DNA from: Bacteroidales bacterium
GTDB taxonomy: Bacteria; Bacteroidota; Bacteroidia; Bacteroidales; CAIWKO01
Length of the DNA: 64,000 nucleotides
Assembly: GCA_035389045.1 (NCBI GenBank)
Contig: DAOORA010000016.1
Coordinates: 1-64,000, forward strand
Reading direction: 5' to 3'
Within the stretch, counting starts at the first letter, position 1. The number at the start of each line of letters is the position of its first letter. This document shows positions 982 to 47,102 of the stretch, in pieces. The notes beneath the pieces were generated by a model. It saw only the letters and a list, made by a program, of their open reading frames with translations. It was not told the DNA's origin and did no database searches. The position numbers were made by a program, and so were the translations under genes.

Positions 982-1431
982 TAACCAGCTATGATCGGGT
1001 AGTTTGTCCCACCGATGATTAACCGTCGGGGAGCACCTCTCACAGTTCCGCTGAGTTTGTAGGAGCGCCGCTGTGTTCATGGTTCTCGTTCTGCCAAGGC
1101 GGACAGCGGGTTCCGCTAATTGGCGGATGGTGCAATTTCCGATATACTTCAAGCATAAATTCATTTTGAGAACCTGGTACTTCTTCCATAATAAACACAG
1201 CTGTTTCTTTAATTTTATAAAATAAATTTGTATTTTTGAAATTGCTTTAGAGTATCGGAACATCATTATCAACAGTCCGAGTCAAAAGAGACAGCATATC
1301 ATAACAATACCTAAAAAGAAAACCTGCCCGTATTTTTGAAGAAAATGGTTAAAGAAATTCCTGTATTAGAAGAAAAACAGCCACTTATTGGGGATGTAAA
1401 TTAAACTGCGAAAATGGGATAGGATGCGAAA

Positions 1432-29645: not shown

Positions 29646-31105
29646 TTCTCAACTTGACTGACAAATCAAAACTAATATGGGTTTATGTTATTAGTGCAAT
29701 TTTTATTGCCCTGAACATATTCTTCATCGCCCGGGAGTTTTATTGGTTTTCGCTGGTACCGGTTGCCCTGATCATTCTTCTGCTCTTTTTCTTTGCCCTC
29801 GACAAAGTGATTTATCTGATTGTTTTTTGTACGCCACTGGCCATCAATATCATGAATGTTGACGACAGGATATCCCTGTCACTACCCACAGAACCCTTAC
29901 TGCTCGGCGTGCTTCTGATGTTTTTTATTAAACTGCTTTTTGAACGTACCTATGATTTTAAAGTACTCAAACATCCTGTGACTATTTTAATTCTTATTAA
30001 TTTGTGCTGGATGTTTGTTACATCGCTCACCAGCGAAATGCCCCTGGTGTCCTTCAAGTTCCTGATCGCACGGCTGTGGTTTGTTATCCCCTTTTATTTT
30101 GCTGCCGTCATCCTGTTTAAAAATATTAAAAACATTAAGACTATCAGCTGGCTATATGTTATACCGTTGGCAGCAGTTATCATTTTTTCAACCTATAACC
30201 TGGTTTTATGGGGTTTTGATGAACAGGCAGCCCACTGGGTTATGTCCCCTTTCTTCAATGACCATACCGCCTATGGCGCTGCCATATCTTTTTTTGTACC
30301 TGTTTTTACCGGATTTGTCATCAACAAACAAAACAACCGTACCAACAGACTATATGCCGGTATCTTATTGTTATTTCTTCTCACCGGGCTGTACTGCTCT
30401 TACAGCAGGGCCGCATGGATCAGCGTACTTACTGCATTGGTTGTCGCGATATTGATTTTTTTGAAAATTAAATTCAGATGGGTTTTTTTGATAAGTGCAA
30501 TTCTCCTTTCAGTATTTTTCTATTTCCAGAACGATATTTTATTAAAACTGGAAAAAAACAAACAGGATTCTTCTGCAGATTTCGTAGAACATGTGCAGTC
30601 TATTTCAAATATCTCATCCGATGCTTCCAATCTTGAACGTATAAACCGCTGGCAATCTGCACTTAAAATGTTCAAAGAACGACCGGTATTCGGCTGGGGT
30701 CCCGGAACATACCAGTTTGTTTACGCACCTTTTCAGAGAACAAGGGATAAAACCATCATCAGCACCAATGCCGGCAACAAAGGGACCGCTCACAGCGAAT
30801 ATATTGGTCCGTTATCGGAATCCGGGTTGCCTGGAATGATCAGTATACTTGCCCTGGTAATCGCAATTAGTATTACAGCCATTCGCCTGTATCACAAGAC
30901 AAAAAAACCGGAAATAAAACTTTTGACCCTGGTGTATTTTCTGGGACTTGTCACCTATTTTGTTCATGGAATATTGAACAATTTCTTAGATACCGATAAA
31001 TCATCGGTGCCCTTCTGGGCATTCACAGCTGCTATCGTAGCGCTCGATATTTACCATAGCAAAGAGGAAAAGGATGCGGAGGCTCCGGCTGATCCAAAAC
31101 AATAA
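29555..31105 (+). CDS. O-antigen ligase/polymerase family protein (start probably downstream, about 29654)
   Basis: Motifs SYSRAAW, ERINRW, FGWGPG, AHSEY. Confidence 0.85.
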   Translation: MYFNTFCLITITVDFFNNWWCKKIRKNCSIILNLTDKSKLIWVYVISAIFIALNIFFIAREFYWFSLVPVALIILLLFFFALDKVIYLIVFCTPLAINIMNVDDRISLSLPTEPLLLGVLLMFFIKLLFERTYDFKVLKHPVTILILINLCWMFVTSLTSEMPLVSFKFLIARLWFVIPFYFAAVILFKNIKNIKTISWLYVIPLAAVIIFSTYNLVLWGFDEQAAHWVMSPFFNDHTAYGAAISFFVPVFTGFVINKQNNRTNRLYAGILLLFLLTGLYCSYSRAAWISVLTALVVAILIFLKIKFRWVFLISAILLSVFFYFQNDILLKLEKNKQDSSADFVEHVQSISNISSDASNLERINRWQSALKMFKERPVFGWGPGTYQFVYAPFQRTRDKTIISTNAGNKGTAHSEYIGPLSESGLPGMISILALVIAISITAIRLYHKTKKPEIKLLTLVYFLGLVTYFVHGILNNFLDTDKSSVPFWAFTAAIVALDIYHSKEEKDAEAPADPKQ

Positions 31106-31202
31106 CAACCCCTTATCTGACTTCCTGAACATATAAAATGGCAGCAAAATGACGTAAGCCTGCTCTTTTACAATTTCTATTTAGTGTTTGAGCGAAAACC
31201 CA

Positions 31203-31473
31203 GTGTCTGAATCGAAAAGTTCAGTTTCGAGGCCTGTCTGACTGGCCTGCCAGGCAGGCTTGCGAAGCGACAAAAAGCGGAGTTTACTGGGGTAAATGCG
31301 CCGTGCTGAGTTTATCGAAGCAAGCATTTTTGGAGCAAGCGTAACCCTGCCCGACTGCGGCAGCGATTTTTTATAGGAGATAATCTCACAGAAATATTTT
31401 AATCAGTAACGGGAATTTGTAAGATGATCCTATGCTATAAAATCGCTGTCCGGTCAGGCGGGCTTTCCGACAC
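31203..31473. repeat. MITE-like scaffold carrying nested palindromic inserts
   Basis: Ends GTGTCTGAA / TTCCGACAC. Inserts CCTGTCTGAC..CAGGCAGG, GCCGTGCTGAGTTTATCGAAG and CCTGCCCGAC..GTCAGGCGGG. Confidence 0.55.
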
Positions 31474-31625
31474 AAAGTAATCTGCTGTTGTTAATTTTTT
31501 CTATTTATTATGTTGTCTAAATATGTATAATCTTTCCTGCTTAAATGTCATGTCTATTATTATGATAATATCGTAACAATAAGCAGTTAAATTAGCATTT
31601 AAATATCATAATTGGGTAGCATTTG

Positions 31626-32063
31626 TCACCAATAGATTACTTTTGAATTAGTGATTGAATTAGAGTTCTCATAAAAATCAATTTTGCATTTCCCATTGTT
31701 CCCTTCAAATGTCATGTCCAAATCAATTGAACCTGATTTATTAGAAATGAATTCTTGTTGATCACTGCTATAGTCACTTACACTCCATCCGTTGCCTTCT
31801 GCATAAAACCATGTACTTGATGGTCCAACTCCAGCCTGGCCTGATAAATTTGTCAATATAATCTTTAAATCAGCCTTTTTTCCTAGTTCTGCAGCAAAGG
31901 AATAATCTGTTGAGCTGGTAATTGTATCAGAGTCCTGAAGTGAAAGAATATTTACTCCATAAAATCCAGATGAAGGATACTCGATTTTTTGTTTCTCTTC
32001 TTTATCGCATCCGTATAAAAATGCTGAAGTAATTAAGATAATGTAAAAAGATAGTTGTCTCAT
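31626..32063 (-). CDS. Hypothetical lipoprotein (last gene of the array)
   Basis: Lipobox LYGC. AT-rich. Confidence 0.75.
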   Translation of the reverse strand: MRQLSFYIILITSAFLYGCDKEEKQKIEYPSSGFYGVNILSLQDSDTITSSTDYSFAAELGKKADLKIILTNLSGQAGVGPSSTWFYAEGNGWSVSDYSSDQQEFISNKSGSIDLDMTFEGNNGKCKIDFYENSNSITNSKVIYW

Positions 32064-32106
32064 GATATATTTTTATTGTGATTTACTATTGACTACCTAC
32101 AATTGC

Positions 32107-32250
32107 AGATAACGAGCCCGTCTGGGATCCGCCACGGCGGACGGCGTCGTTTTAAAAGCCGTTTCCTGTCCTAATAACACCGCCGCTTGATAAAAGAACT
32201 GCACTGTCCTAAAACCCCGCTGCCCCTCTGATAGCAAGCCTTTGTAAGCA
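32107..32250 (-). other. attC-like site (degenerate, with palindromic insert)
   Basis: On the minus strand, TGCTTAC lies 4 bp after the upstream stop and the element ends CTCGTTATCT. Confidence 0.55.
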
Positions 32251-32254
32251 ATTG

Positions 32255-32731
32255 TTAATTGTGTTTTTCCACCATATTAATAAGTGTTGTGTCCCAGGAT
32301 TTTTGTTCCGTATATTTCTTATAAGGTTCGACATATTTTTTTGCCATTTCATGCTGCTGATTTAAAAAATAAATGAGGCAAAGATGATAATAAGATTCAC
32401 CATTATTTTTGTCGATGGTCACGCACTTATTATAACATGAAATGGCTAAATCGTTATAAGCTTTTTGTCCGTCGTCTATCGCAGCCATACCTTGATAAGT
32501 CATGCCCAAGTCATTATAATATAAATAAAGTCCATTTGAAATTCTTGCCGTGTCAATTTCTAATAAGTTTTTCAGAGTCGAGTTTACAGTTGATGAGTCA
32601 AATTGTGCACAAGAAAATTTGAGGATTTCTGGTCTTATTTTTTCATAGTCAATGTCATTTTTACATGCGGTCAATAAAACTATGATAAGGATGCAAAAAG
32701 TCGTTGAATATTTTTTATGTAATGATTCCAT
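32255..32731 (-). CDS. TPR-like lipoprotein
   Basis: Lipobox LTAC, with helical YNDLG...A...Y.K and YY.L..IY repeats. Confidence 0.7.
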   Translation of the reverse strand: MESLHKKYSTTFCILIIVLLTACKNDIDYEKIRPEILKFSCAQFDSSTVNSTLKNLLEIDTARISNGLYLYYNDLGMTYQGMAAIDDGQKAYNDLAISCYNKCVTIDKNNGESYYHLCLIYFLNQQHEMAKKYVEPYKKYTEQKSWDTTLINMVEKHN

Positions 32732-32749
32732 TTTTTTATTTAAATAAAT

Positions 32750-32877
32750 GCATAACGGTCGAGGCTATATGCAGTGAGGGATTGCGAGCTGTTTTCCTGT
32801 CTGCAGACACCGAAATTTGAGCGGGGCAGAATGCTTGAATTACTACTGAAATCCTTATTGCATATAGCCTTTAGGGG
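32750..32877 (-). other. attC-like site
   Basis: Arms AGGCTATATGCAGTGAGGGATT / AATCCTTATTGCATATAGCCT. R' GTTATGC, R'' CCCCTAA(A). Confidence 0.75.
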
Positions 32878-32929
32878 TTCGGTGTTTGTTGTGATATCTT
32901 TCAATTTAGTTGTGTCTTTAATTTCGAGT

Positions 32930-33997
32930 TCAGAACTTATTTTTCTTCATATCTTTTTTGTAGTTTTTAATCACTTTCCCAAACTCTTTATCTTTTTTTC
33001 GTCTCTCTTCAATTGTTGATTCAAAATGTGCTTTTTCCCGCTCCATTTTCAGATAGTTTTCAAAGGATTTTTTGTCAATTTCTCCATTTTTAACTGCTTC
33101 AATTACGGAACAACCGACTTCATTTATATGTGTACAATCCTTAAATTTGCAATTTAGAGAAAGACGGATAATTCTGTCATAAGTAGTTTCTAATCCGCTT
33201 GAAGTATCTGCAATTCCGACTTCTCTCATTCCCGGATTGTCAACAAGAATTCCACCACTTTCAAGAATAATTAATTCCCTATGACTTGTTATGTGTCTTC
33301 CTTTATTTGTGCTTTGGCTTATTGAATCCGTTCTCATTAAAGTTTTCCCTGAGAGATTGTTCAATAATGTTGACTTCCCCACTCCTGAAGAACCAAGCAT
33401 ACAATAGGTTTTACCTTTCTCAATATTCATTTTAAGTATACCGTATCCATCCTGAGTTTCGTTACTAATTGCATAAACTACAATGTTTTTTATTCGTTGT
33501 TTAATACTGTCAGAAATTTCAGTAACCTTTTGTTCATTTATTAAATCAGTTTTTGTCAATACAATTATTGGTTTTACTTTAGATGAATAACAAATTGTCA
33601 GGTATCTCTCAAGTCTGTTGATATTGAAGTCTCTGTCAATAGCTTGAATCAGAAATGCATAATCAATATTTGTTGCTATTATTTGTATCTCTCCGAATTG
33701 ACCAACGGCTTGTCTTGTAATCATTGATAGTCGCGGAAGTGTTTGATGGATTACCGAAAATCCAGCATCATACGTTGTCAATGCAACCCAATCGCCAACC
33801 GCAGGGAAATCTATACGGCTTTTTGCTGAAAACCGTAAATTTCCTGTTATTTCGGCTTCATATTCACCGTTTTCGGTTTTTACAATATATCTTTCCTTAT
33901 GTTCCGCAACGACTCTTCCAATCTCAAAGTCAGAAAGGTTATTCTCAACTCTTAATTTTTGGAGTTCGTCATTGTATCCAAAATCTTCTAATTTCAT
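32930..33997 (-). CDS. rsgA: Ribosome small subunit-dependent GTPase RsgA (long paralog type)
   Basis: Motifs AVGDWV, TKTD, GSSGVGKST, GRHIT, DNPG, C.F.DC.H..E.GC. Confidence 0.92.
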   Translation of the reverse strand: MKLEDFGYNDELQKLRVENNLSDFEIGRVVAEHKERYIVKTENGEYEAEITGNLRFSAKSRIDFPAVGDWVALTTYDAGFSVIHQTLPRLSMITRQAVGQFGEIQIIATNIDYAFLIQAIDRDFNINRLERYLTICYSSKVKPIIVLTKTDLINEQKVTEISDSIKQRIKNIVVYAISNETQDGYGILKMNIEKGKTYCMLGSSGVGKSTLLNNLSGKTLMRTDSISQSTNKGRHITSHRELIILESGGILVDNPGMREVGIADTSSGLETTYDRIIRLSLNCKFKDCTHINEVGCSVIEAVKNGEIDKKSFENYLKMEREKAHFESTIEERRKKDKEFGKVIKNYKKDMKKNKF

Positions 33998-34054
33998 AAC
34001 TTCTGCAATGTTTTTCTTTTTTCACACTGACCGCTAAAGGATTGGCTCTTTAAA

Positions 34055-34173
34055 TATTTCAAAATTACAAATTTATTTTATAGAAGCAAATAAGCGGGTG
34101 TAATTTTTCCAGCGGGTGAAAGTCCCTTCCTTAGGCTCTCACTAAAGGCTTAGCCGGTAGGGCAGCCTGCTCG
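34055..34173 (-). promoter_or_regulatory. Repeated promoter module, copy A
   Basis: 34055-34123 matches 36068-36136 (about 62/69) and 34156-34173 equals 36248-36265. Contains a TAATTTTG (-7) box facing rsgA. Confidence 0.6.
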
Positions 34174-34221
34174 TTTATGCGTTTGTGCTACTTAATTGTT
34201 CACCCTATCACAAGCTACCTT

Positions 34222-36000
34222 CTACAGTTTAATCAATTTTAATGGAGGCTGTTCATTATTTTTTAGCCGAATAAAGTACAGCCCATTTGGTAAATCCGCA
34301 ACACTAAGGCTTGTTGCTCCTGATACATCCATTACTTTTGTTAAACATCCGGTTGCGCTATAAATTTGAATTTCTTCCTGTACAGGGTATTTCGCAAATA
34401 TAATAGTAATAGTTTCCGATGCAGGGTTTGGAAATATACTCCAGAATAATTCCTGATCTCTTACCTCAATACCAACAACTCCACAATCATATTGCAGAAC
34501 GTAAGAAGTAGTGTCTAAAGGACAATTAGAGTTGGGGTTAATGACTTTACATTCGTATTTTCCTTCTGTAGATATAAACAATGTGTCTTCATTGGTCATA
34601 AATGATAAAAGCGTATCATTTTTAAACCATAGAATATTTTCTGAACCGGATAAGAAACCGTTTATATGTAATACGGCAAATGGCACAGTATCACCTATGC
34701 AAGGGTCACCCAATGCATCAAAGTAATAACCGGGCCATACAGCACTTTCTGTATATAATTCTGATAATTCAGAACAACCATTAACGGTAGAAATAACGGA
34801 AAATCCCGAAATATTATATTGAAAATAATCTGGTAAATATTGATTGGTTTCAGGTAAAGGAACGCCATAAGCAAACCATTGATAGGAATCTGCTGCTTGT
34901 GTCCAAAGTGTATCATAATTGCACAACCAGGGAAGTGTTGTATAAATGGTTGGTGAATGGCTGCAGAATTGAATAATAGTATCCGCAAGGCTGGTGTGCA
35001 ACCCTTGCAAATCGCAATTTGTTGTCGTTAATGAAACCGTGTATGTTCCGTTCGTTACATAGGAATGAGTTGGATTTGTTGTGGAAGAAGTATTGCCATC
35101 TCCAAAATCCCAAAAATATGTTTGCAGAACGCCTTGGTTCATTGGGCTAAAAATTACTTCATTAATACCAGAACCTATCTGATAGCTAAAGTTAGCTATG
35201 GGTAGTCTCTTAAAATCCCATAATTGTAAACTGTCGAACACTTGTGTTTTTACTGCATTTTTTATAATGGAAGCATCGCTTGCATTTAATCCGAAATTAT
35301 AAGTAATCAATGTGGGGTCTTTTTTAAAAAGGGTTGCATAAAAGCAACATGCAGCAGCATAAGAACCCGCTACTGAAGGGTGACTTTCGTCTGCCTGGTA
35401 CAATTCAATGCTGGGATAATTTTGTCGCAGGTAATTCCACACAACTGAAACAGGAGATACTTCTCCATTAATAAAAGCCGTGAGGTTTAAATACCGGTTC
35501 CTTATGGTCGTGTCCATACCTTGATAAGTACACATTACGGGGAAGGTAGCGCAATTTGATGCATCTCCGTTTTTTCTTCCCCAGGTCATATAGGGCATTG
35601 TTACTGCACATGGATTATATTGTTTTATCAGGTTATTTAAAGCGGAGCCACCACTGTTAAATTGACTGTAAAACGTAATAGGCTCCTGGCTTTGTCCCTG
35701 AATAACTGCATAATCCCAACCACCAGTCATTATTTTAGTTTGACTGGTAACATCAAGGCTATGATCTATTAATTGATATCCTCCGGGAGTATAACTATCA
35801 AAAACCAACGTATCTCCGGCTGACAAGGCAACGTCATGCACAATTTGCGGTAAATTATTAACCCCGGTATAACTGTTCCCAAGGAACAGCACTTTATAAC
35901 TGAGTTGAGCTTTTAATTCATATCCTGAAATACAGAAGAATGAATTAAACAAAACGATAATTAAATGATTTATTTTATTGATGGTTGAATATTTTCGCAT
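34222..36000 (-). CDS. SGNH-like (DUF4886-like) + PKD domain protein with T9SS CTD
   Basis: Motifs FLGNSYT, D.SHPS..GSY, WDFGDG..S...NP.H.Y, IFPNP. Confidence 0.85.
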   Translation of the reverse strand: MRKYSTINKINHLIIVLFNSFFCISGYELKAQLSYKVLFLGNSYTGVNNLPQIVHDVALSAGDTLVFDSYTPGGYQLIDHSLDVTSQTKIMTGGWDYAVIQGQSQEPITFYSQFNSGGSALNNLIKQYNPCAVTMPYMTWGRKNGDASNCATFPVMCTYQGMDTTIRNRYLNLTAFINGEVSPVSVVWNYLRQNYPSIELYQADESHPSVAGSYAAACCFYATLFKKDPTLITYNFGLNASDASIIKNAVKTQVFDSLQLWDFKRLPIANFSYQIGSGINEVIFSPMNQGVLQTYFWDFGDGNTSSTTNPTHSYVTNGTYTVSLTTTNCDLQGLHTSLADTIIQFCSHSPTIYTTLPWLCNYDTLWTQAADSYQWFAYGVPLPETNQYLPDYFQYNISGFSVISTVNGCSELSELYTESAVWPGYYFDALGDPCIGDTVPFAVLHINGFLSGSENILWFKNDTLLSFMTNEDTLFISTEGKYECKVINPNSNCPLDTTSYVLQYDCGVVGIEVRDQELFWSIFPNPASETITIIFAKYPVQEEIQIYSATGCLTKVMDVSGATSLSVADLPNGLYFIRLKNNEQPPLKLIKL

Positions 36001-36067
36001 TTGAAGGTTTCTAAGAATTTATCACGTATATGAATTACCGATTGCGATCCGGCTGCTGCGCTATAAG

Positions 36068-36265
36068 TATTTCAAAATTACGAATTTATTTTATAGAAAC
36101 AAACAATCCGGTGTGATTTTTCCAGAGGGTGAAAGTTATGCCCTTCGACTGTTATAGTTATAGAAGCTCTAAGGCGGGATGCTGATTACGGGGAAATTGC
36201 TCCATTTGCCAGTGGGCGGAAACTGCTGTCTGCTGAAGCGGATTGCTGGTAGGGCAGCCTGCTCG
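36068..36265 (-). promoter_or_regulatory. Repeated promoter module, copy B
   Basis: Same module as copy A. TAATTTTG at 36073-36080 faces the 34222..36000 gene. Confidence 0.6.
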
Positions 36266-36338
36266 ATGATTGGCTGGCATTATTTTATTCTCTTTCCGAT
36301 ATAAAACATATAGCCATAGTACGCTTTGTATTTGTTAT

Positions 36339-36509
36339 GGGCACCTCTAAAAACTTCAAATTTCTTTGTTCGTCTTCGTTCTTCAAATCCTTGCGTCCGG
36401 CAGGCTCAGCACAGGCATATACGCTATGTACACTGCGGTTTTCAGAACTTCGACTGCCTCGAACTTTTTTGTTTCTATAGGCGTCCGATCCAGGTTTTTA
36501 GAGATGCCC
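36339..36509. mobile_element. MITE with 16-bp terminal inverted repeats
   Basis: GGGCACCTCTAAAAAC ... GTTTTTAGAGATGCCC (1 mismatch). Contains a GGCAGGCTCAGCACAGGC REP-like insert. Confidence 0.75.
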
Positions 36510-36664
36510 TTATATAATTCTGCTTCATATCGCTGGTATCGATTGTTACTATAGCCTATCGAATTGGCGGTTGCTCTTCGGTGGCGCTTATACTATTATA
36601 CTTCCTACGAAGAACAAAGGTTTCAATATGCTCGACACTGTCATAAAAAGCACTGTACTGCAAC

Positions 36665-36775
36665 TGACAGCAACCGCCTGATAGACCAAAAAGCCCGATA
36701 AACATTAGGATTTATCGGGCTTTTTGCTCCGCCGCGGCGGAAGGGCTTTTCGGCTATCACTCTATGTGTTTAAAT
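36665..36775 (-). other. attC-like site, paralog of 41046-41162 (degenerate right end)
   Basis: Shares AACACATAGAGTGATAGCCGAAAAGCCC...CAAAAAGCCCGATAAATCCTAATGTTTATCGGGCTTTTTGGTCTAT with 41081-41158. Starts just after the ATPase stop. Confidence 0.6.
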
Positions 36776-36778
36776 TTA

Positions 36779-38011
36779 TCATCCTACTTTTTCTAGCAGC
36801 CATTCAAATACATTTTTATGAATTATTCCTGCTCTGTTTTGAGTAAAAGACTCAGTCGAAAGCAAATATTTCGGATAATTGTCTTTTACTTTTTCTAAGG
36901 GTGCAAATTCACGTTTTTCGGTTTCAGGATTTGAAATCTCCCAAGCAACTTGATAATATTCAATGTCTCCATTACGATTCTTTACAATAAAATCAATTTC
37001 TGCATCTCTAAGTGTTCCTGTCCAAATTTTATATCCTCTCCTTAGAAGTTCAAGATATACTACATTTTCAAGAATATGACCTCTGTTTGATATTCTTTCT
37101 CGTCCGACAAGTACATTCAGCAATCCTAAATCTACGAGATAATATTTTTCTTGAGTGGCAAGTTGTTTTTTCCCTTTTATATCAAAACGATGCACACAAT
37201 AGAAAACAAAACTTTCAACTAAATAAAGTATAAATTTATCTACCGTTGCATGATGAACACTCTGTCCGTCAACTTTTAAAGCTTTTGATATACTACTAGG
37301 TGACATTTGGCTACCGATATTCGATGCGACAAATTTTATAACGTTATTAAATGCTCGTTTATCATTTATTTTATTTCTTTGCATAATATCTTTTTCAATA
37401 ATTGTCGCATATAAAGCTTCAAGATATTCGTAAATTTTATCAAAACCGTCTTCACGTAGTTCAACTCCTTTGGGTAAAGATGTTTCATTTACAAAATCGT
37501 AAAATAATGCGTCATAATTTAGGTATTTATTATTATAATCAATACCTCTAAATTTCAGATATTCAGCAAATGAAAATGGTAAAATAGAAATATCAATATA
37601 TCTACCACTCAGCAAAGTAGCCAATTCACTCGATAAAAGGTTGGCATTTGAACCTGTGATATAAACATCAATATTTTCTGTGGCATAAAGCCCATCAACT
37701 AATTTCTCAAAATCCGGAATATTCTGAATTTCATCAAGAAATATATAGTTTTCTTTTTCTATAACTATTTTTGATTTTATCTCAAAATAGATGTCATCCC
37801 ACTTTTTATTTAGATAATTCTCAGGTAATTCATAATTATATAACTGAGTCTGTTCGGGTTTTACACCATTAGAAATCAAACGATTTTTGAACATCGTTAA
37901 TAGTGTGGATTTTCCTGAACGGCGTAATCCAGTCACTACTTTGATAATGTCTTTATCCTTGTACGATAATAATTTATCTATATATTCTTTTCTTTCTATT
38001 AAATCTTTCAT
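36779..38011 (-). CDS. AAA_14 ATPase with DUF4143 domain
   Basis: Motifs GLRRSGKS, FLDEIQ, TGSN, LSGR, LENVV..EL, EIDF. Has its own TATCTTTG box upstream. Confidence 0.9.
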   Translation of the reverse strand: MKDLIERKEYIDKLLSYKDKDIIKVVTGLRRSGKSTLLTMFKNRLISNGVKPEQTQLYNYELPENYLNKKWDDIYFEIKSKIVIEKENYIFLDEIQNIPDFEKLVDGLYATENIDVYITGSNANLLSSELATLLSGRYIDISILPFSFAEYLKFRGIDYNNKYLNYDALFYDFVNETSLPKGVELREDGFDKIYEYLEALYATIIEKDIMQRNKINDKRAFNNVIKFVASNIGSQMSPSSISKALKVDGQSVHHATVDKFILYLVESFVFYCVHRFDIKGKKQLATQEKYYLVDLGLLNVLVGRERISNRGHILENVVYLELLRRGYKIWTGTLRDAEIDFIVKNRNGDIEYYQVAWEISNPETEKREFAPLEKVKDNYPKYLLSTESFTQNRAGIIHKNVFEWLLEKVG

Positions 38012-38077
38012 AGTACAAAGATAATTAAATTATCAAAACCATCAAAAATTGCAAGTTTTGATAATATATGACACTTT

Positions 38078-38187
38078 GTCGGGTAACTCAGGCTGATTAC
38101 TCCGCCCTTGTCCCCTAAGAACCGTACTTGAACCTTTCAATTCATACGGCTCAGGCTCTCTATAGGCGGATTAAACCACCCGGCAAT
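38078..38187 (-). ncRNA. Group II intron 3' fragment (end of DIV, DV, DVI), copy 1
   Basis: Minus strand reads GAGCCGTATGAATTGAAAGGTTCAAGTACGGTTC (DV, 38119-38152) then TTAGGGGAC...TTACCCGAC. Confidence 0.85.
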
Positions 38188-38320
38188 ATACAAAAAAATT
38201 CAGTGAATACGTCAGCGGTATTTTCTTTTTAAGAAATAAGCAACACCCGCCAAACGTAAAAATCCCGTTCTACATCCGGTTTCTTGAAAAGTTTGGTGTG
38301 GACATAATGCTGTGCCCCGC

Positions 38321-38416
38321 TTGTAACGATCAGGTGCTGCTGCATGGCGGGATATCTTTGATGACACGCTGAATGTCGCAATACAGTCTCCCGCTTGTAG
38401 CAGCACAAAGTTATGC
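38321..38416 (-). other. attC-like site
   Basis: R'' GCATAAC 7 bp after the stop. Arms GTGCTGCTACAAGCGGGA / TCCCGCCATGCAGCAGCAC. R' GTTACAA. Confidence 0.8.
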
Positions 38417-38423
38417 ACTGCGT

Positions 38424-40451
38424 TCATTGTTTTATAAATTTAATCACTTCAATTCTTTTATCGGTTTTAACTTTCACAAAATATATTCCGTTGGCTAAAT
38501 CACCAATATTTACAAGTGTTTTTTTATTATTTACTTTTTGTTTTAAAATTTTCTGTCCGTTTATATTATATATATTTAGCTCACTGTAGCCTAAACTTGA
38601 AGGTTTTTCTATGATTATATAAGAAGAGGATGGATTGGGATAAATAGAAATATCGCCTTTTTCAATTATTTCCTGCATACCTGTAATTAGAGATAATGGA
38701 CGCTTCCAGATGCTACTACCGTGAGTACCGCAATACATTACACTATCTGTTGCAGCCAAACAGATAATACTCTTATTTAATAAGCCGTCATTAAAATCGC
38801 ACCATGTCTCTCCATAATCCGTTGTTGAATAAATACCGCCATATCGCGCGGCTGTATAAATTACATTATTATATCTGACAAAAGTAGCAAAATGCAATCC
38901 CAACAGTCCATTGTCTTTAAGGAGCCATGTTTCGCCATTATCCGATGAAACGTAGACGTGACCTGTACAATATATACCTGTAAATAAATGTTCATCATAT
39001 TTTTTAATGGTGAGCACATTGGTACTGCTTAACCCATTATTTTTTTGCGACCAATTTAAGCAAAAATCATCGGAACGGTAGATTCCATTATCCGTTGCTA
39101 CATAAACAAATGGGCTGTCAATTTCAATGGCTTTAATATTCGTGGTTGTGACAAATTGATCAAAATCCGACAAATTCCATTGCAAGCAATTATCATTGGA
39201 TATGAATATTTTGCCTGAGGAAGTACCTGCAAAAAAAATGTTTCCATAATTTGCCAGTGACAAAATATTAAAATCATACATATTAGTTATGCCATTATTC
39301 AAGGGAATCCAGTTGCCCGAACCGGAACTTTTATAGAATATGCCAGTATTGGTACCTGCATACAAACCTGAATTTTTCATTAAATAACAATTAATATTTG
39401 TAAAGATTCCTGAGGAAATCATTGTCCATGTATTTCCATTATTGTTTGTTAATAAAACATGTCCGTTGATGTCGTTGGCATATATACTGTCTGCAGCTGA
39501 TATGACAGAGTTAATATAGGAAGATTTCAGCCCATTATTTGCCTGATGCCAGATATATGTATTGGTATCGGCTTTATAAACACCGCTTTTAACAGTACCT
39601 AATAATACATCGTTACCAAGAATAATCATGCTGTAGATATCAAAGTCTCCAAGCCCGGTGTTGTGAGAAGTCCATGTTATACCATTGTCAGTTGTCACGC
39701 TGAAACCCTGTGTAGTAGCAACAAAGATTTTTGAACCAATTAATCCAATTGAAGTAACAGGAAGGTTGATGCCGGTTAAAGATGTCCAAATGTTTCCACC
39801 GTCATGTGAAGTGTAAATACCACTATTCAAACCGGCGTATATAGTAGAATCCTTTCCAATAACACAACCTACATTTTGCCCGGCAAATCCGCAGGATGTC
39901 CATAACAAATTATTTGTTTCTGTCTTACATACTCCTCCTCCTATAGTTCCTGCGAATATTGTATTATTTAAAATCCAGAGGGAATAGACATATAGATTTG
40001 TTAAACCAGTTGATGATTCATTCCAGTTTGTTCCGTCATTATAGGAAACAAAGAACCCACCCTCAGTTCCGGCATATATACAAGTGTCATTTGTAGCCAG
40101 GCAGTTTACTTTAAGATTTGACAGACCGGTATTGACAGTAGTCCATGTTATTCCGTAATCCGAAGATCTTAAAATCCCGCCTTCATAGGTTCCTGCAAAC
40201 AAAATATTATTCCTGATTGTTAAAGTTGTGATGTAGGGAAAATTCATATTCCCATTTATGGATTGCCAGTGTTCACCATTATCGGCTGATTTATATACAC
40301 CTCCGCCAAAAGTACCTGCAAAAATCAAAGAGTCATTTGATGCAAAACTGATAAATCTGCCACCTTCAGGACCATTTGTTTGCTGCCATTGGGCATTTGT
40401 ATTGAAAACAATACAAATAATTCCAATTAAAAGAAAAATTTGTTTTTTCAT
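38424..40451 (-). CDS. BNR/Asp-box beta-propeller protein with T9SS CTD
   Basis: Many AGT.GG..S.D.G..W...N.GL repeats and IYPNP. Confidence 0.88.
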   Translation of the reverse strand: MKKQIFLLIGIICIVFNTNAQWQQTNGPEGGRFISFASNDSLIFAGTFGGGVYKSADNGEHWQSINGNMNFPYITTLTIRNNILFAGTYEGGILRSSDYGITWTTVNTGLSNLKVNCLATNDTCIYAGTEGGFFVSYNDGTNWNESSTGLTNLYVYSLWILNNTIFAGTIGGGVCKTETNNLLWTSCGFAGQNVGCVIGKDSTIYAGLNSGIYTSHDGGNIWTSLTGINLPVTSIGLIGSKIFVATTQGFSVTTDNGITWTSHNTGLGDFDIYSMIILGNDVLLGTVKSGVYKADTNTYIWHQANNGLKSSYINSVISAADSIYANDINGHVLLTNNNGNTWTMISSGIFTNINCYLMKNSGLYAGTNTGIFYKSSGSGNWIPLNNGITNMYDFNILSLANYGNIFFAGTSSGKIFISNDNCLQWNLSDFDQFVTTTNIKAIEIDSPFVYVATDNGIYRSDDFCLNWSQKNNGLSSTNVLTIKKYDEHLFTGIYCTGHVYVSSDNGETWLLKDNGLLGLHFATFVRYNNVIYTAARYGGIYSTTDYGETWCDFNDGLLNKSIICLAATDSVMYCGTHGSSIWKRPLSLITGMQEIIEKGDISIYPNPSSSYIIIEKPSSLGYSELNIYNINGQKILKQKVNNKKTLVNIGDLANGIYFVKVKTDKRIEVIKFIKQ

Positions 40452-40495
40452 ATCTCCTTTTATGTAATGGTTAATATTTGCAGTATCATTTTTCT

Positions 40496-40605
40496 GTCGG
40501 GTAACTCAGGCTGATTACTCCGCCCTTGTCCCCTAAGAACCGTACTTGAACCTTTCAATTCATACGGCTCAGGCTCTCTATAGGCGGATTAAACCACCCG
40601 GCAAT
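40496..40605 (-). ncRNA. Group II intron 3' fragment, copy 2
   Basis: Identical to copy 1 at offset 2418. Confidence 0.85.
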
Positions 40606-40655
40606 ATACAAAAAAATTCAGTGAATACGTCAGCGGTATTTTCTTTTTAAGAAAT

Positions 40656-41035
40656 AAGCAACACCCGCCAAACGTAAAAATCCCTTTCTACATCCGGTTT
40701 CTTGAAAAGTTTGGTGTGGACATTATGCTGTGCCCTGCTTGCAAGAAAGCTAAGTTACAGCTTGTCGGGGCGGTGTTCCCCAACATCAGGGGAAACCCGA
40801 AAATTAAACGCTTTGAAGCTTTATGATAATAATGTGCTTTGCTCCTTTGGAGCGAAACGCTATCATATTGCCCTCTCCCGCCAAATTGACCTTAAATCCC
40901 AAAAACATTAATATTTCACCAACAATAAAATCGTGCTCCAATGAAAAAGCAACACATAATTTTAGCAAAACGGAATTTTTATATGTATCTCTGTATAGCC
41001 CAAATCTCAAAAACATCGCTACTTTTTCCCCTAAG
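40656..41035 (+). pseudogene. C-terminal remnant of an IS91-family (Y2) transposase plus downstream element end
   Basis: Frame 40656-40826 reads KQHPPNVKIPFYIRFLEKFGVDIMLCPACKKAKLQLVGAVFPNIRGNPKIKRFEAL*. CPxC...RGxP is typical of these tails. Partial copy at 38238-38326. Confidence 0.55.
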
Positions 41036-41045
41036 GTGAAAGTTC

Positions 41046-41162
41046 TGCTAACGGTGTCGCTGAATCCGCCAGTTGGCGGAATAGACCAAAAAGCCCGATA
41101 AACATTAGGATTTATCGGGCTTTTTGTTTGGGGCTTTTCGGCTATCACTCTATGTGTTATGC
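41046..41162 (-). other. attC-like site
   Basis: R'' GCATAAC, long internal hairpin, R' GTTAGCA. Contains a TCCGCCAGTTGGCGGA insert. Confidence 0.8.
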
Positions 41163-41187
41163 ATTCGTGCTTTCTTTCGTGCCATTT

Positions 41188-42189
41188 CTATTTCAACTTG
41201 ATAACTACTTTCCCTTTTGAACGTCCTGCTTCCACATAAGCTAATGCTTCGTTTGTTTGTTCAAATGAAAACACTCTGTCCATTACAGGTTTTATGACAC
41301 CATCATTTATAAGTGTAGTAATTTCTGTCAACTGATTTCCATTTGCTCTCATAAAAAGAAATGAATAGTTTACTCCAAGTCTTCTTGCATTATTTTTAAT
41401 TCCGAAACTTAACATTTTCATAATTAGTTTCACAAACCAAGGTAAACCAATGTCATTTGCAAAGTCTGTATCCGGTGGACCAGAAATAGAAATAACTTTT
41501 CCATTTGGTTTTAATATTCGTAGCGACTTTTCAAGTGTCTTACCATCCTGACTGTTTAACACCAGATCGTAATCTTTTAGTATAGTTTCAAAATCTTCAT
41601 TTTTATAGTCAATCACAATGTCTGCCCCCAAACTTTTTACTAATTCAATGTTTGTTGAACTTACCGTTGTTGCTACTGTCGCACCCAAATGTTTCGCCAA
41701 CTGAATTGCAAATGTACCTACACCTCCAGAACCTGCCTGAATTAAAATCTTTTGTCCTTTCTTCAGATGTGCCGTTTCTATCAGTGCTTGCCAAGCTGTC
41801 AAACCAACTAATGGAATAGAGGCTGCTTCTTCCATTGATAGATTTTTTGGTTTAAGTGCTGCATCATTCTCATTTATTGAAATGTATTCTGCAAAAGTTC
41901 CTATTCTGTGGTCAGCAGGTCTTGCATAAATTTCATCTCCAACTTTAAATTTGCTAACTTGTGAACCTACTTTTGTTATAACACCTGCAACATCGTGTCC
42001 CAAAGTAAATGGTGTTTTGTATGGCAGAAAGATTTTAAATTCTCCATTTCTGATTTTTGCATCAAGAAGATTTACGCCTGTCGCATAAACTTGAACCAAA
42101 ACATCATTTTCTTTCACAATTGGTTCTGCTGTTTCTGAAAGATGCAATCTCTCTTTTTTACCGTATCGTTTAACTGTAAATGATTTCAT
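41188..42189 (-). CDS. NADP-dependent oxidoreductase (MDR/quinone reductase-like)
   Basis: Motifs GHDVAG, AGSGGVG, GRSKGKVV. True ATG at 42189; the longer ORF call runs through the attC-like site. Confidence 0.9.
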   Translation of the reverse strand: MKSFTVKRYGKKERLHLSETAEPIVKENDVLVQVYATGVNLLDAKIRNGEFKIFLPYKTPFTLGHDVAGVITKVGSQVSKFKVGDEIYARPADHRIGTFAEYISINENDAALKPKNLSMEEAASIPLVGLTAWQALIETAHLKKGQKILIQAGSGGVGTFAIQLAKHLGATVATTVSSTNIELVKSLGADIVIDYKNEDFETILKDYDLVLNSQDGKTLEKSLRILKPNGKVISISGPPDTDFANDIGLPWFVKLIMKMLSFGIKNNARRLGVNYSFLFMRANGNQLTEITTLINDGVIKPVMDRVFSFEQTNEALAYVEAGRSKGKVVIKLK

Positions 42190-42237
42190 ATTTAATTTTT
42201 TAAGTCGGTTTGAAGTTCGTGGTTTCTCCAGCATGAC

Positions 42238-42359
42238 GCATAACGGTCGGGGCTTTCTGCTGTGCGCTTCCCTGCATTGTCTTAAAAGCCGAACTTTTTC
42301 TGTCCACAACTTACATGTCTACGAAGCCAGATGCGCATTGCAGAAAACCCTTAGGCACA
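42238..42359 (-). other. attC-like site
   Basis: R'' TGTGCCTAA(G) 4 bp after the stop. Arms GGGTTTTCTGCAATGCGC / GCGCACAGCAGAAAGCCC. R' GTTATGC. Confidence 0.8.
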
Positions 42360-42363
42360 GGTT

Positions 42364-42897
42364 CTATTTTCTTATCATAACAACTATTTTTTGTCTTTGT
42401 TGCCCGCAGGTTATGTGAAATTTATAGTGTCCACTACTTGGAGGCATTGTTTTACTTACAAAATAAAACTCAAACTCTGTCCGGTCCGCAAGATAATTGT
42501 ATTTTGTTGATGTCCTTGGTAGCTTGGATTTTTCTATTGTGTCTATAGTTGGGATAATGTTAATGCTAATTTTATGTTTGTAATATACAATTTTCTCATT
42601 ACATATTAGCTTGTCAATATAGTCAATTGCCTTTGAAATAGTATCTTTTATTGATTTGTCAATGTGTCCTTTTATCGTAATTCCAATTAAAGGATTTTCG
42701 TTAAATAGATTCAATGCCGTGTCAATATTTACAGTTTTTATGGAGTCAATGTGAACTCTTTTGTCAATTATGCATTTTTTATGAGTTTGAATTTCCTTAG
42801 AGTCATTTCTATGATTTGTCATTGTTGTCTGTTTATAACAACCTGTCAAGGACGCTAAAAATAGAATGGTCAATATTTGTATTGTCGATATTTTCAT
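42364..42897 (-). CDS. Hypothetical lipoprotein (first cassette)
   Basis: Lipobox LTGC. ATG lies 14 bp after G|TTAGGCACA. Confidence 0.75.
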   Translation of the reverse strand: MKISTIQILTILFLASLTGCYKQTTMTNHRNDSKEIQTHKKCIIDKRVHIDSIKTVNIDTALNLFNENPLIGITIKGHIDKSIKDTISKAIDYIDKLICNEKIVYYKHKISINIIPTIDTIEKSKLPRTSTKYNYLADRTEFEFYFVSKTMPPSSGHYKFHITCGQQRQKIVVMIRK

Positions 42898-42900
42898 AAA

Positions 42901-42940
42901 CTTGTGCCTAACAATTGTGATATTACATTCCGTTTATTTT
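42901..42940 (-). other. attI-like simple site at the head of the array
   Basis: Reads AAATAAACGGAATGTAATATCACAATTG|TTAGGCACAAG, with no hairpin upstream. Confidence 0.55.
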
Positions 42941-42945
42941 AGCTT

Positions 42946-43084
42946 TATCTTTGTAATTATTATTATCTCTCTTTGCATTTATAATTATTTGTAGATTAGT
43001 GTTTTATTCATATTAAAGCCGTTTATAATCGTTTATAAACGATTGTATATAAATAAATTTTTTTTAATGATTCGCACAAATATA
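42946..43084. promoter_or_regulatory. Opposed Bacteroidota -7 boxes and an 18-bp palindrome
   Basis: TATCTTTG (+, 42946-42953), TATATTTG (-, 43077-43084, facing the array), AATCGTTTATAAACGATT (43027-43044). Confidence 0.45.
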
Positions 43085-43166
43085 TAAATAAATAAATGAA
43101 AAATAAAGTTTTTAAACATATTTTTGGGGTTGTTGTTCAGCATTTTGTTTCAGCCTTAAAAACATC

Positions 43167-43200
43167 AAACCCCGCCTGACTATACAGCCAGACAGGGTTT
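43167..43200 (-). terminator. Hairpin after the large T9SS gene (terminator and/or CCTG..CAGG repeat member)
   Basis: AAACCCCGCCTGAC..GCCAGACAGGGTTT. Confidence 0.5.
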
Positions 43201-43245
43201 GAACTATAAACGCACAAGGCGCTTTTTAATACAGGTTAATGGAAA

Positions 43246-46200
43246 CTACCGCTTCAGTATCATCTTCCCGGTGTATACGCCATCGTCGGTGACCATCCGG
43301 TAAAAATACACGCCTGATGAAAGAGATTGCCCGTCAAATTCAGATTTGTACTCCTGATTTTTCCTGGCTTCTCCATCAAACAATGTGGTGATCACTTTAC
43401 CCGAAAGATCATAAACATCAAGTACCACCTTGCTGTCTTCCGGCAGGGTGAACACAATATGGGTCGCGCCGCTGAAGGGGTTCGGATAATTCCGGACCAT
43501 AACATCTGACAAGGGTTCCTCCGCCCCTGCCAATGATTTCAGGCCAGGGCAGGTACCGCAATTCGTATTCAAAGCCCAGTAATTGTTCTTTCCGGATTTT
43601 ATCTGTTTGGCAAAAAACATACCTGCAAACAATCCTGCATCGTCCCGGTTAGGACGTGAATCATCAACAGTCAATGTAAAGTCCAGGTCGGTTCCTTTGG
43701 TGTTGAACAGGCAGACGATACCATTGACCACGTTACTGGCTCTGAAATGCACGTCTTTCTGAACATAAAACCATAAAGGAACATTGTCCGGGTTGATTTT
43801 GACCTTTTTCTCGGTTTCCAGCCCCTCTTTGATCCTGACTTTTGTGCAGGGTGCAAATTTTATGGTGGAACCTTCTTTAAAAACAACCTTCCTGACAATG
43901 TCGATCTCCGTCTGGGTAAAGGTAACAGTTGCTCTCTTGCCAACGATCACTTCTTTATAAGATGATCCCGTCAGGGTGACTTTGGCGTTATCCGGTACAT
44001 GAACCGTGATTGTTCCCGTACTCTGGAGCAGTTCAAAAGCGGGCAGCGCCGCGGTAGCCGGATCATAAATACGGTTGGTTACCGCGCTTGTTCCATCAAC
44101 CGTGATGATGTCGCTTTTGGCAAATGTACCCGGCGCCGTTACAGAGGAATGATCCTTCACTTCAATCTTGCCGCCGACTTTCCTTACTCCTGCGCCACCA
44201 CTGGTTAACGTTGTTGCTTTCATCTGTACAAGATCTTTGGCGAGCATCACATAACCTGCAGCTACGGTGATTGTCTGAACCTGGTCTGGAGCTGCATTGC
44301 CGCAGTAATCTTCCAGATGCCATGTCCGTTCAATGACCGTGGCGCCATAGCACGAGCCCGAAACAATATTATCCACATAAGCAGCCTCGATTCCTGGTGA
44401 ACAGTTGTCGTACTCATCCGTAACATCGCCGGTATTGGCAACCGATACATCGTAAGTATCATAGTCGTCGGCGGTGTACGTGAAATCAGGCGGGGCTGTG
44501 AAAACCGGCGCCATATGATCAAGTACCGTGATGGTCTGTAACTGGTCAACCGCCTGGTTGCCGTTTACATCAACCAGCGACCAGGTACGTAAAATAACGT
44601 AGGAACCCGCACATGGCCCGGCTACAGGCATATCAGCGTAAGTTGCCTGTGGAATCTGGCAATTATCCCATTCATCCGTCACGTCACCGGTATTTCCAAC
44701 CGAGATATCATACTGGCATAATGAATCTGTATAAATGGTGATGTCTGCGGGGGCCGTAAATACAGGGGGAATATTGTCAACAACTGTAACAACAGCAATA
44801 CATTGCGATTCATTATTATGAATGTCTGTTATGGTAAGTGTTACCGGATTGTCCCCGACATTAGTGCAATCAAAGGTATTGGGGAAAACCGTCATACTTT
44901 CTATGCCACAGTTATCCCAGGAATCAAAGTCAACATCAGCGGGGGCTATCGAAGCATTACCCGTCGAATCAAGCTGAACAGTGATATTCCTGCATACCGC
45001 ATTAGGAGGTTCATTGTCATTTACTGTTACTACAAAGCTGCACGTTTCGATTTCGCAGTCGTTTGCCGCTGTGACATATACGGTAGTGGAACCTACCGGA
45101 AAAAAGTAGGGAGAACTGACAGGGTTCATTTCTGCCATGTAGGTCACATCAGGCTCCGGAGTGCCCTCAACGGTAGCAGCAAAACTGACCAGGGCCCCGC
45201 AAACACCCGGGGCATTGTCTTCTTCAATAGCATCAGGACAGGTCAGAACCAAATCGGACTGTACGGTCAGCACAAAAATGGCCTGGTCACCCATCACATC
45301 ACCGGCATCAGGAATACCGTTAACATTTACGTCATAGTAAGGTGTTGCAGTAACCGAGACCGTTTGTGCCATACCGGTATGGTTCTCGAGCATGATGGTC
45401 TGTGATCCGATTAATTGTGCCTGGGCAAAAGGAACATCGGTAACGCCTGTCGGAATACCCGGTAGAGAAGAAACGCATACCCCATGAATCATCAGCGGGC
45501 CGCAGGCGCCGGCCGGAGCGGATAGTAAAACCGGATTACTGCCGGTCAACCACTGCCCGCTGCAGATGGTCAGCTCATATTGCGGGTCTCCGCTAGTTAT
45601 CAGCTGACTGTATCCAAAAGTAGACACGGTACCGGCAACCACAGGCACAGGGCAAACCGTCAGCACAAAGGTTACCGGATCGCCGGCCACATCACCGGCG
45701 TCAAAAATTCCGTTTACATTAACATCATAATAAGGAGTTGCAGTAAACGTAATAGTCTGCAACAAGCCCGTATGGTTTTCCGGTGTGATGGTCTGTGGAC
45801 CGGCTGACTGGGCATAGGCAAATGGAACATCAACAACACCCGAGGGAATGTTGGGCAGGGTTGAGGTACAAACCCCATGCAGCATCAGCGGGCCGCAGAC
45901 GCCGGCCGGGGCGGAAAGTAATACCGGATTACTGCCGGTTAACCACTGTCCGCTACAGATGGTCAGGTTATATTGCGGGTCACCGGTGGTCACCAACTGA
46001 CTGTAACCCAAAGCCGTCAGGGTAGCAGCAACCACAGGAACCGGGCCGACCGTCAGCACAAAGGTAGCCGGATCACCGGCCAGATCGCCGGCATCAAGAA
46101 TTCCGTTCACATTGGCATCATAATAAGGAGTAGCTGTAAAAGTAAGAGTCTGCAATAAGCCGGTATGGTTTTCAGGAGTGATAGTCTGCGGACCGGCTGA

Positions 46201-46671: not shown

Positions 46672-47102
46672 TATTTTATAATATTTTATAATCGTTTATT
46701 TACAATAAATTGTATTTTAACTGTTTGAATATATTTTAAGATTAAAATATATAAAGATATAACAATGAAGTGAAAAAGTCAAACATTTTAACATTTTTTA
46801 CAACATGTGCATATATGGTTTAAACTATTTATAATATGGCATTTATGTATGTTTTTTGTAGTAAGTAATACTTCTGTGATAAATTGACGCAATAACAGCA
46901 TCTATGCTGTTTACACATCAGGATTGATGTCCGTTGAAAACAGATGGAAATTTGGAAAGCTATAAACAAACCTTATTGCATAAATAAAGCGTACCCAAAA
47001 ACAATACGATTACTGTATAACTTTTCGGGAGTAACGTAGTAATTTCCTCAGTCCGCCATGGCGGAACGCAGATTAACGAAGATTATGCAAGCCCCCCCCC
47101 TA

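Follow-up and report, generated by a model that had tools for sequence, protein, structure and literature searches.

The closest described counterparts of the locus reported here are sedentary chromosomal integrons and clusters of attC sites lacking integron-integrases (CALINs), such as the VCR (Vibrio cholerae repeat) array of Vibrio cholerae. Their mostly one-gene cassettes lie on the same strand, with imperfect palindromes, nnnTAAC and GTTRnnn cores, a G|TT crossover point and a cassette start complementary to the cassette's own R''; their sites form families alike in sequence within a lineage, and their cargo is rich in defence and secreted proteins. Archaeal integrons, according to passages of PMC9668308, have the attI site immediately downstream of the integrase gene, co-oriented arrays and integrases that retain the IntI-specific additional domain. 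The IntI-specific insert is deemed necessary for integron recombination in passages of that paper, citing Messier and Roy (2001), and of PMC8138268. Surveys that make the insert a condition find next to no integrons in the Bacteroidota. For the Bacteroidetes, section 3.1 of a complete-genome survey (PMC9024848) gives only In0 elements and one complete integron, in Salinibacter ruber; a preprint (10.1101/2024.07.02.601686) counts the Bacteroidota among the clades earlier found without integrons, and a passage of a review (PMC8618304) lists them among the integron-bearing phyla with no detail. Our literature search, supplements excluded, found no description of attC arrays served by a recombinase of the type reported below. 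We analysed a 64,000-nucleotide stretch of a Bacteroidales bacterium (contig DAOORA010000016.1 of assembly GCA_035389045.1; the window, on contig C16 in our numbering, in which genomes, contigs and loci carry the letters G, C and L). The original prediction for this stretch was a lineage-specific array of integron-like gene cassettes with six attC-like hairpins, served by a tyrosine recombinase encoded elsewhere or lost. We read positions 31626-42912 as an orphan, decaying integron-type cassette array (a CALIN) that lies within a ~16-kb genome-specific insertion and belongs to a variant, non-IntI system, and we put the probability of this reading at roughly three in four.

The locus is variable within its genus. 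By tblastx (loci L028-L036), window position ~31070 directly adjoins ~47100 in 9/9 relatives, where only ~10-25 nt separate the Wzy gene from the convergent gene at window 47103, so that gene content here is not syntenic. A DNA search of the 18-genome genus found the left flank (Wzz/Wzy) conserved to ~31075 in 15/17 other genomes and the array in none of the 17, and fragments of sites F, E, B, D' and A turn up elsewhere in the genus as dispersed repeats. All eight open reading frames (ORFs) at 31626-42897 lie on the minus strand, as had been predicted, and they are AT-rich, the G+C content of the array being 0.29-0.40 vs ~0.40-0.52 in the flanks. The array starts at a core, GTTAGGC at 42912-42906 (minus strand), whose attI-like context CACAATT|GTT resembles the attI cores of relatives; upstream of it lies a gene with a type IX secretion system (T9SS) tail and no recombinase gene.

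To locate the sites, we built a covariance model, R1, from 12 sites of other genomes, none of them from the window, with the structure set by hand; R1 recovers 8/8 held-out sites. The whole 64-kb window was searched with filters off, counting matches at E<0.05. Five matches were obtained, all on the minus strand and all within the region described above, the next-best match anywhere in the window having an E value of 0.79. In the whole genome, R1 at E<=0.01 gives 8 matches, three of them in the window, three on C29, one on C43 and one on C93. The insertion, the start core and the sites are as follows.

31100..47090, unstranded: strain-specific ~16-kb insertion made up of the array, a leader rich in AT and a T9SS-tailed gene of 1141 aa
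42906..42912, minus strand: 5' boundary core GTTAGGC, complementary to R'' of site A at 6/7 positions
42238-42356, minus strand: attC-like site A (R1 50.9 bits, E 2.2e-10), R'' GCCTAAg, R' GTTATGC
41046-41162, minus strand: site B, atypical attC-like, with canonical cores (R'' GCATAAC, R' GTTAGCA) and a terminator-like hairpin at its centre
38321-38416, minus strand: attC-like site C (R1 28.5 bits, E 7.7e-5), R'' GCATAAC, R' GTTACAA, hairpin folded
36681..36770, minus strand: terminator-like B-type repeat, the bulk of predicted site D, with 83% identity to site B over 90 nt
36554-36686, minus strand: attC-like site D' (R1 34.6 bits, E 2.3e-6), with a homologue at C29:48896-49028
32750-32876, minus strand: attC-like site E (R1 17.2 bits, E 0.048), 12-bp outer stem, R' GTTATGC
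32107-32250, minus strand: attC-like site F (R1 55.9 bits, mostly from sequence; E 1.3e-11), a decayed copy of a genus-wide F-type

A model made from the sites of other genomes thus finds five sites in the window, four of which (A, C, E and F) stand where they had been predicted. Site B was not matched by R1 in the whole-window search, and predicted site D (36665-36775) is mostly the terminator-like repeat, R1 placing the site just downstream at 36554-36686 with an overlap of ~20 nt. The sites stand at the 3' ends of genes and on a single strand, and hence are not dispersed independently of stop codons: the gap from the stop codon to R'' is 7 nt for A, 7 nt for C, 4 nt for F, 25 nt for B and 53 nt for E, and 92 nt for D', where the B-type repeat lies in between. 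The proposal that structure rather than sequence is conserved was half right, because F, E, B, A and D' are sequence families recurring across the genus. A copy related to site A occurs in G012 (L040, 85%), homologous copies of site B in G016 and G002, and related copies of site E, whose R'' lacks the C of AAC, in 6 genus genomes. The F-type has a clean consensus: 11 copies from five genomes show nnATAAC followed by AAA and a first arm, then a middle that varies, a second arm complementary to the first, TCGACC and GTTAnnn, with the similarity stopping directly after GTTA, and this is the textbook attC layout. TAAC and CGTTA are invariant in our site alignments. Three of the five recognised window sites have damaged cores or arms. 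Alignment of site F with the 10 other copies shows TTAC in its R'' instead of TAAC and other sequence in place of its 3' arm. In D' both cores are altered, with TATC ... GATA where TAAC ... GTTA is expected; the two changes match each other, and R'' of D' is the final 7 nt of the adjacent B-type repeat. Two sites may have fused to give D', or the second change may compensate for the first.

Folded as single-stranded DNA, sites A, C and E form long imperfect hairpins with outer stems of 11-12 bp by the GTTA core. The folds of B and D are dominated by their common terminator-like hairpin (z -4.4 to -5.9), and site F, owing to the replacement of its 3' arm, folds no better than shuffled sequences (z -1.0 and +0.24). 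The two strands fold about equally well. An Rfam search returned nothing for the sites themselves; its matches at E<=5 were intron domains and chance matches on the terminator-like hairpin. Two other approaches were abandoned. Two hand-written pattern scanners gave 200 matches and then 220 in the genome vs 304 in the reversed genome, and were too noisy to discriminate by themselves. A Nussinov-type consensus on a 20-site alignment was nonsensical, with the arms out of register, and led to the hand-set structure on the 12-site alignment.

It was the comparison with relatives that decided the matter. Because an integron cassette takes its first bases (TTnnnn) from the site that it carries, each R' has to be the reverse complement of the R'' that follows in the next site. 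Tested over 7 arrays, this holds at 7/7 positions in 15/19 adjacent pairs, compared with 32/631 (5%) of the non-adjacent pairs and 0/26 of the same-site pairs under the same exact test. In the window, the junction from the start core to site A matches at 6/7 positions and that from A to B at 7/7. The arrays in G004, G006, G012 and G017 are likewise on one strand, mostly with one ORF per unit, and their sites begin 0-60 nt after the stop codon; the cassettes of relatives carry restriction-modification, SIR2, nuclease and secreted proteins. A ~600-bp unit consisting of a 155-aa ORF and its site is 100% identical in G004 and G012, from the upstream GTTAGCA to 4 nt before the next GTTA, and the neighbouring and upstream cassettes differ. 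The housekeeping flanks of these two genomes match the window at ~69%. This is cassette-level exchange between species, bounded at the cores, and it bears out in relatives the expectation that gains and losses end at G|TT. In two of the recombinase-bearing loci, G006:C28 (L019) and G004:C5 (L023), the recombinase-proximal cassettes are often two-gene, for example a DNA methylase with an unnamed partner, and a pair of genes for 328 aa and 298 aa is present in both. By their appearance these may be restriction-modification gene pairs, each travelling as one cassette.

The genome has 9 tyrosine-recombinase matches, all of them on contigs other than C16, in agreement with the prediction that the window holds no integrase, and a candidate encoded elsewhere was found in the same genome. 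Contig C124, of 3968 bp, encodes the protein (500 aa) that comes closest to the integron-integrase model; it scores 219.7 bits against TIGR02249 (cut-off 265) and leaves model positions 181-237 unmatched. The same protein reaches 223.8 bits with the XerA model NF040815, just over the cut-off of 220, a score that says nothing on a role in dimer resolution. Residues 181-237 of VchIntIA (2A3V), which we take to hold the integron-specific insert, align to only 14 residues of the C124 recombinase, and archaeal XerA matches it equally well as VchIntIA (PDB 5HXY, E 5.9e-41). The additional domain near patch III, which belongs to the IntI of the classical definition, is thus missing from this protein. 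Among 41 genomes of the order, no match exceeded the TIGR02249 cut-off. XerC/D-like genes are separate, on C12 and C24.

The recombinase gene is always found beside an attI-like core and cassettes where the contig permits. Same-strand attC-like sites lie 1.5-5 kb downstream of it in four genus relatives (L019, L020, L021 and L023), and the arrangement recurs in three other genera (L042, L043 and L044). The attI-like site lies 20-280 nt after the recombinase stop codon; in the genus relatives it comes after two direct repeats and its last part is a core of the type ...ACAAAC|GTTAT. Its core 7-mer is the exact reverse complement of the first attC R'' in 7/8 genomes (the seven loci just named, L045 being the eighth). 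On C124, outside the window, there is likewise an attI-like site beside the recombinase gene, and both C124 and G002:C125 end exactly at ...AAACGTT(AT) of the attI-like site. Contig breaks at the attI GTT are expected if the sequence beyond varies within the sampled population. In this assembly, the end of G000:C121 and the start of G000:C124 both break exactly at a GTTAT core (...GAGCCGTTATT and ...AAACGTTAT). Where a metagenome-assembled genome breaks at such cores, variable arrays might be sought.

The recombinase differs from XerA and XerC/D by an N-terminal extension of ~125-265 aa, with total lengths of 390-590 aa across the family. The extension consists of two copies (three in one relative) of a ~65-aa beta-beta-alpha module joined by a disordered linker. 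Pfam HARP (PF07443) matches in two stretches, with a score under its cut-off. Structure comparisons gave no more than middling scores, with eIF1 (Z 7.8, rmsd 3.2, 72 aligned residues; rmsd, root mean square deviation), the N-terminal domain of T4 UvsW (Z 7.4, rmsd 2.2, 62 aligned) and the damage-recognition domain (DRD) of XPB (Z 6.9, rmsd 1.8, 56 aligned). Foldseek with the model of the N-terminal part gave no match at E<=0.001 in the PDB, the nearest being XPB (5tnu, E 0.058) and the SMARCAL1 HARP domain (4o66, E 0.18), and the ESM Atlas returned for this part one unnamed cluster at 0.78, below the level of a lead. We treat as a lead, not a finding, the suggestion from these models that the modules may bind structured DNA.

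Alongside the site architecture, the cassette rule, the exchange of a cassette between species and the linkage of recombinase, attI and array that we observed, we propose the following mechanism. Cassettes would be one- or two-gene units, each closing with an imperfect hairpin site of 60-185 nt in the order R''(nnnTAAC) - L'' ... L' - spacer - R'(GTTRnnn), and would enter and leave at G|TT through site-specific recombination. In all likelihood a classical IntI is not involved; the enzyme would be the XerA-like tyrosine recombinase without the IntI insert and with the doubled N-terminal module, whose gene, attI-like site and cassettes run in one direction, C124 carrying the probable platform of this genome. 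A recombinase of the C124 type probably catalyses cassette recombination, and as in integrons the reaction may use folded single strands. The window array may have arisen from such a recombinase platform or by insertion at a secondary site.

How this system compares with those described can now be stated. Like chromosomal integrons, it has same-strand, mostly one-gene cassettes, imperfect palindromes with the canonical cores, a cassette start complementary to its own R'', site families and a cargo of defence and secreted proteins; unlike them, it has a recombinase without the IntI insert and with a doubled N-terminal module, a recombinase gene co-directed with the cassettes and an attI site 3' of that gene, cassettes that are often two-gene, and sites of up to 185 nt. 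It shares with archaeal integrons the attI immediately downstream of the integrase gene and the co-oriented arrays, whereas the archaeal enzymes, as the passages cited above have it, retain the additional domain that is missing here. The XerA and XerC/D resolvases (NF040815; PDB 5HXY, 4A8E) are the best sequence relatives of the catalytic half; they differ by lacking the extension, and the recombinase described here is not universal in the order (38/121 genomes). With five R1 matches and no recombinase on C16, the orphan window array, far from the integrase, fits the CALIN definition (at least two attC sites and no integrase gene nearby) as worded in a passage of PMC9024848.

In an even, order-wide sample of 121 genomes, attC matches occur in 38/121 genomes, the module in 38/121 and both in 19. 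The recombinase family reaches Chitinophagaceae, Cytophagaceae, Rufibacter, Arcicella and Nibribacter; its members are mostly labelled XerD or 'tyrosine recombinase/integron integrase' and often stand on very short contigs. We think it probable that Bacteroidota have a second, IntI-independent class of integrons, widespread in that its recombinase family ranges from Bacteroidales to Cytophagales and Chitinophagales, in which a Xer-like enzyme carries, instead of the insert, a doubled module that may bind structured DNA and takes up attC-bounded cassettes at an attI 3' of its own gene. If this is true, the requirement of the IntI insert for cassette movement is not general, a large reservoir of mobile cassettes has gone uncounted in sludge, digester and gut-type Bacteroidota, and standard integron finders would miss the system because they require the insert. 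In that case the window would illustrate what becomes of an array once it is orphaned, with decay of its cores and colonisation by IS91 (IS, insertion sequence), intron and MITE (miniature inverted-repeat transposable element) sequences. The window alone is of smaller value, being one decayed orphan array and mainly an example of array degradation.

The colonising elements of the window are the following.

40495..40744, minus strand: composite debris, copy 2, in which ~87 nt of an IS91-type end are joined to ~163 nt from the 3' end (domains V-VI) of a group II intron
38077..38326, minus strand: composite debris, copy 1, 98% identical to copy 2, beginning at the TT after the G of the site C core
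36327..36530, unstranded: dispersed MITE-like repeat of ~180 bp, with more than 25 copies in the own genome and many in relatives

The intron part of the composite (repeat D1) was recognised by Rfam (RF00029, 58.8 bits at 40496-40572; two copies). Both 250-nt composites directly follow site cores and are the only two copies in the genome, and copy 1 begins as if placed by cassette recombination itself. In G016 (L038) the same 87 nt continue into an ORF with Y2_Tnp/Zn_Tnp_IS91, and the intron domains are absent there at the position they hold in the window, whence our IS91 reading of the 5' part. The intron parts are fragments, not introns: only domains V-VI are present, in a 250-nt unit with an IS91-type 5' part. 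An intron 3' end and an IS91-type end after two site cores recall the elements known to lodge at attC, namely group IIC-attC introns and ISCR (insertion sequence common region)/IS91 elements. Group IIC-attC introns are described in a passage of PMC7923331 as lying in opposite orientation to the cassettes and inserted at TTGT/T in R''. We considered the 250-nt repeat as a miniature or 5'-truncated intron of this kind and rejected it, since in contrast the fragment is oriented as the cassettes, measures only 163 nt and is joined to an IS end. The own genome contains no full-length copy. The window array is best read as a decaying orphan, and it looks largely inactive now.

Several findings weigh against our reading of the locus. 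Window junctions after the second match at 3-4/7 positions, which is chance level; site F lacks one arm, and the C of AAC is missing from sites A and E. For A, C and E, folding is energetically not clearly better than in shuffles (z -0.7 to -2.1), and since the z values are weak or mixed among the six sites, fold energy alone cannot carry the site claim. The last gene of the array, for 145 aa, has an 84% identical counterpart in G011 in an unrelated context, and this similarity is bounded by the ORF and not by cores. Across the order, the module occurs in 19/38 attC-positive vs 19/83 attC-negative genomes (odds ratio 3.4, one-sided p 0.003), which is only a moderate co-occurrence among genomes that are kin and not independent. 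G017 has 17 attC matches and no recombinase match, which either counts against strict dependence or reflects unassembled DNA, and G027 (L045) departs from the attI rule. To read the modules as HARP-like has a weak basis (Pfam 21.7 bits vs a cut-off of 25; structural Z 6-8). The genome is 96.3% complete in 135 contigs, so that a classical IntI may lie in the unassembled part.

The alternative that fares best is that the array is a dead relic, on which no enzyme acts now and whose own platform has lost its recombinase gene or had it replaced. We hold the chances of this to be even. The start core CACAATT|GTTAGGC is close to the attI core of G057, the rule fails past the second junction, cores and arms are decayed, and IS91, group II intron and MITE debris lies in the array. 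Against it, the first two junctions have stayed intact, the genome does encode a recombinase, and the 330 nt upstream of the array match nothing in the own genome, the attI region of C124 included. It overlaps with the orphan-array reading rather than excluding it. A second, improbable alternative is a classical integron system, with a canonical IntI that is missing from the assemblies or acts in trans and with the Xer-like recombinase as a bystander or an enzyme of other function. The cores are indeed the canonical integron ones, the gaps in the assembly leave room for such a gene, and a passage of PMC9024848 describes CALINs without a nearby IntI as common in known integron hosts; however, 0/41 genomes of the order exceed the TIGR02249 cut-off, a bystander does not explain the match of attI to the first attC in 7/8 genomes, and two contigs break exactly at the attI core. 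Finally, it is very unlikely that the hairpins are self-spreading REP (repetitive extragenic palindromic)- or MITE-like repeats or terminators amid a set of horizontally acquired genes, since, although the 180-bp element, a 290-nt element and the B-type hairpin are truly dispersed, the fold z values of A, C and E are weak and the loose pattern scan showed no enrichment over the reversed genome, such repeats would not yield the chain of R' and next R'' (15/19 adjacent pairs vs 5% in controls), a 100% identical unit of gene and site bounded at cores in two species, or the strict one-strand placement after stop codons. The proposal of an integron-like cassette system served by a tyrosine recombinase elsewhere is therefore supported by the non-syntenic locus, the core-bounded units and the C124 candidate.

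The coding content of the array, in cassette order, is as follows.

42364..42897, minus strand: cassette 1 ORF, 177 aa, no Pfam family; N-terminus lipoprotein-like by eye
41188..42189, minus strand: cassette 2 ORF, zinc-type alcohol dehydrogenase / quinone oxidoreductase-like (Pfam ADH_zinc_N_2, ADH_N, ADH_zinc_N), ATG at 42189
40745..41051, minus strand (that of the cassettes): short cassette-like segment without an ORF, conserved in G016, with 81% identity over 520 nt to L038
38424..40451, minus strand: 675-aa ORF, BNR-like repeats and, at the C-terminus, a T9SS sorting domain (Pfam Por_Secre_tail, DUF6242)
36779..38011, minus strand: ORF of 410 aa, ATPase with AAA_14 and DUF4143 (Pfam)
34222..36000, minus strand: 592-aa ORF, with a T9SS tail besides DUF4886-like and PKD domains (Pfam), without an attC-like site 3' of it by R1
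32930..33997, minus strand: ORF of 355 aa, RsgA-family GTPase (Pfam RsgA_GTPase, 2.5e-47)
32255..32731, minus strand: ORF of 158 aa with weak TPR matches, all under Pfam cut-offs
31626..32063, minus strand: last ORF, 145 aa, no Pfam family and no site 3' of it

In the whole-window search with R1, no site was found between the 592-aa gene and the RsgA gene. An RsgA-family ribosome-biogenesis GTPase (32930-33997) is unusual as cassette cargo; a 70% identical gene at G009 C5:90716-91759 may be the housekeeping copy.

Some further repeats and motifs were seen in and around the arrays. The stretch that separates the Wzy gene from the array's end contains a modular dispersed repeat of ~290 nt (31173-31462), parts of which occur on at least 15 contigs of the own genome, often at contig ends, and also in other genus genomes; just before it stands a partial copy of the junction between the Wzy gene and the convergent gene. 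A 10-kb stretch of the locus was compared with public sequencing runs, and its word shares of 0.96 (activated sludge), 0.57 (anaerobic digester) and 0.24 are uninformative on variants and habitat. Another repeat lies upstream of two array ORFs (34045-34197 and 36058-36289) and is also found at window 1190-1242 and at C43:1211-1304, where it directly follows an attC-like site. Inside it, TTTG ... TAATTTTG resembles the Bacteroidota promoter consensus; if the repeat is a promoter, some cassettes may carry their own. At L026 (G004:C63), Rfam recognised DUF805/DUF805b cis-regulatory RNA motifs at 361-429, 793-860 and 2431-2463 (80.4, 72.9 and 41.4 bits), which precede ORFs within and just upstream of the cassette array.

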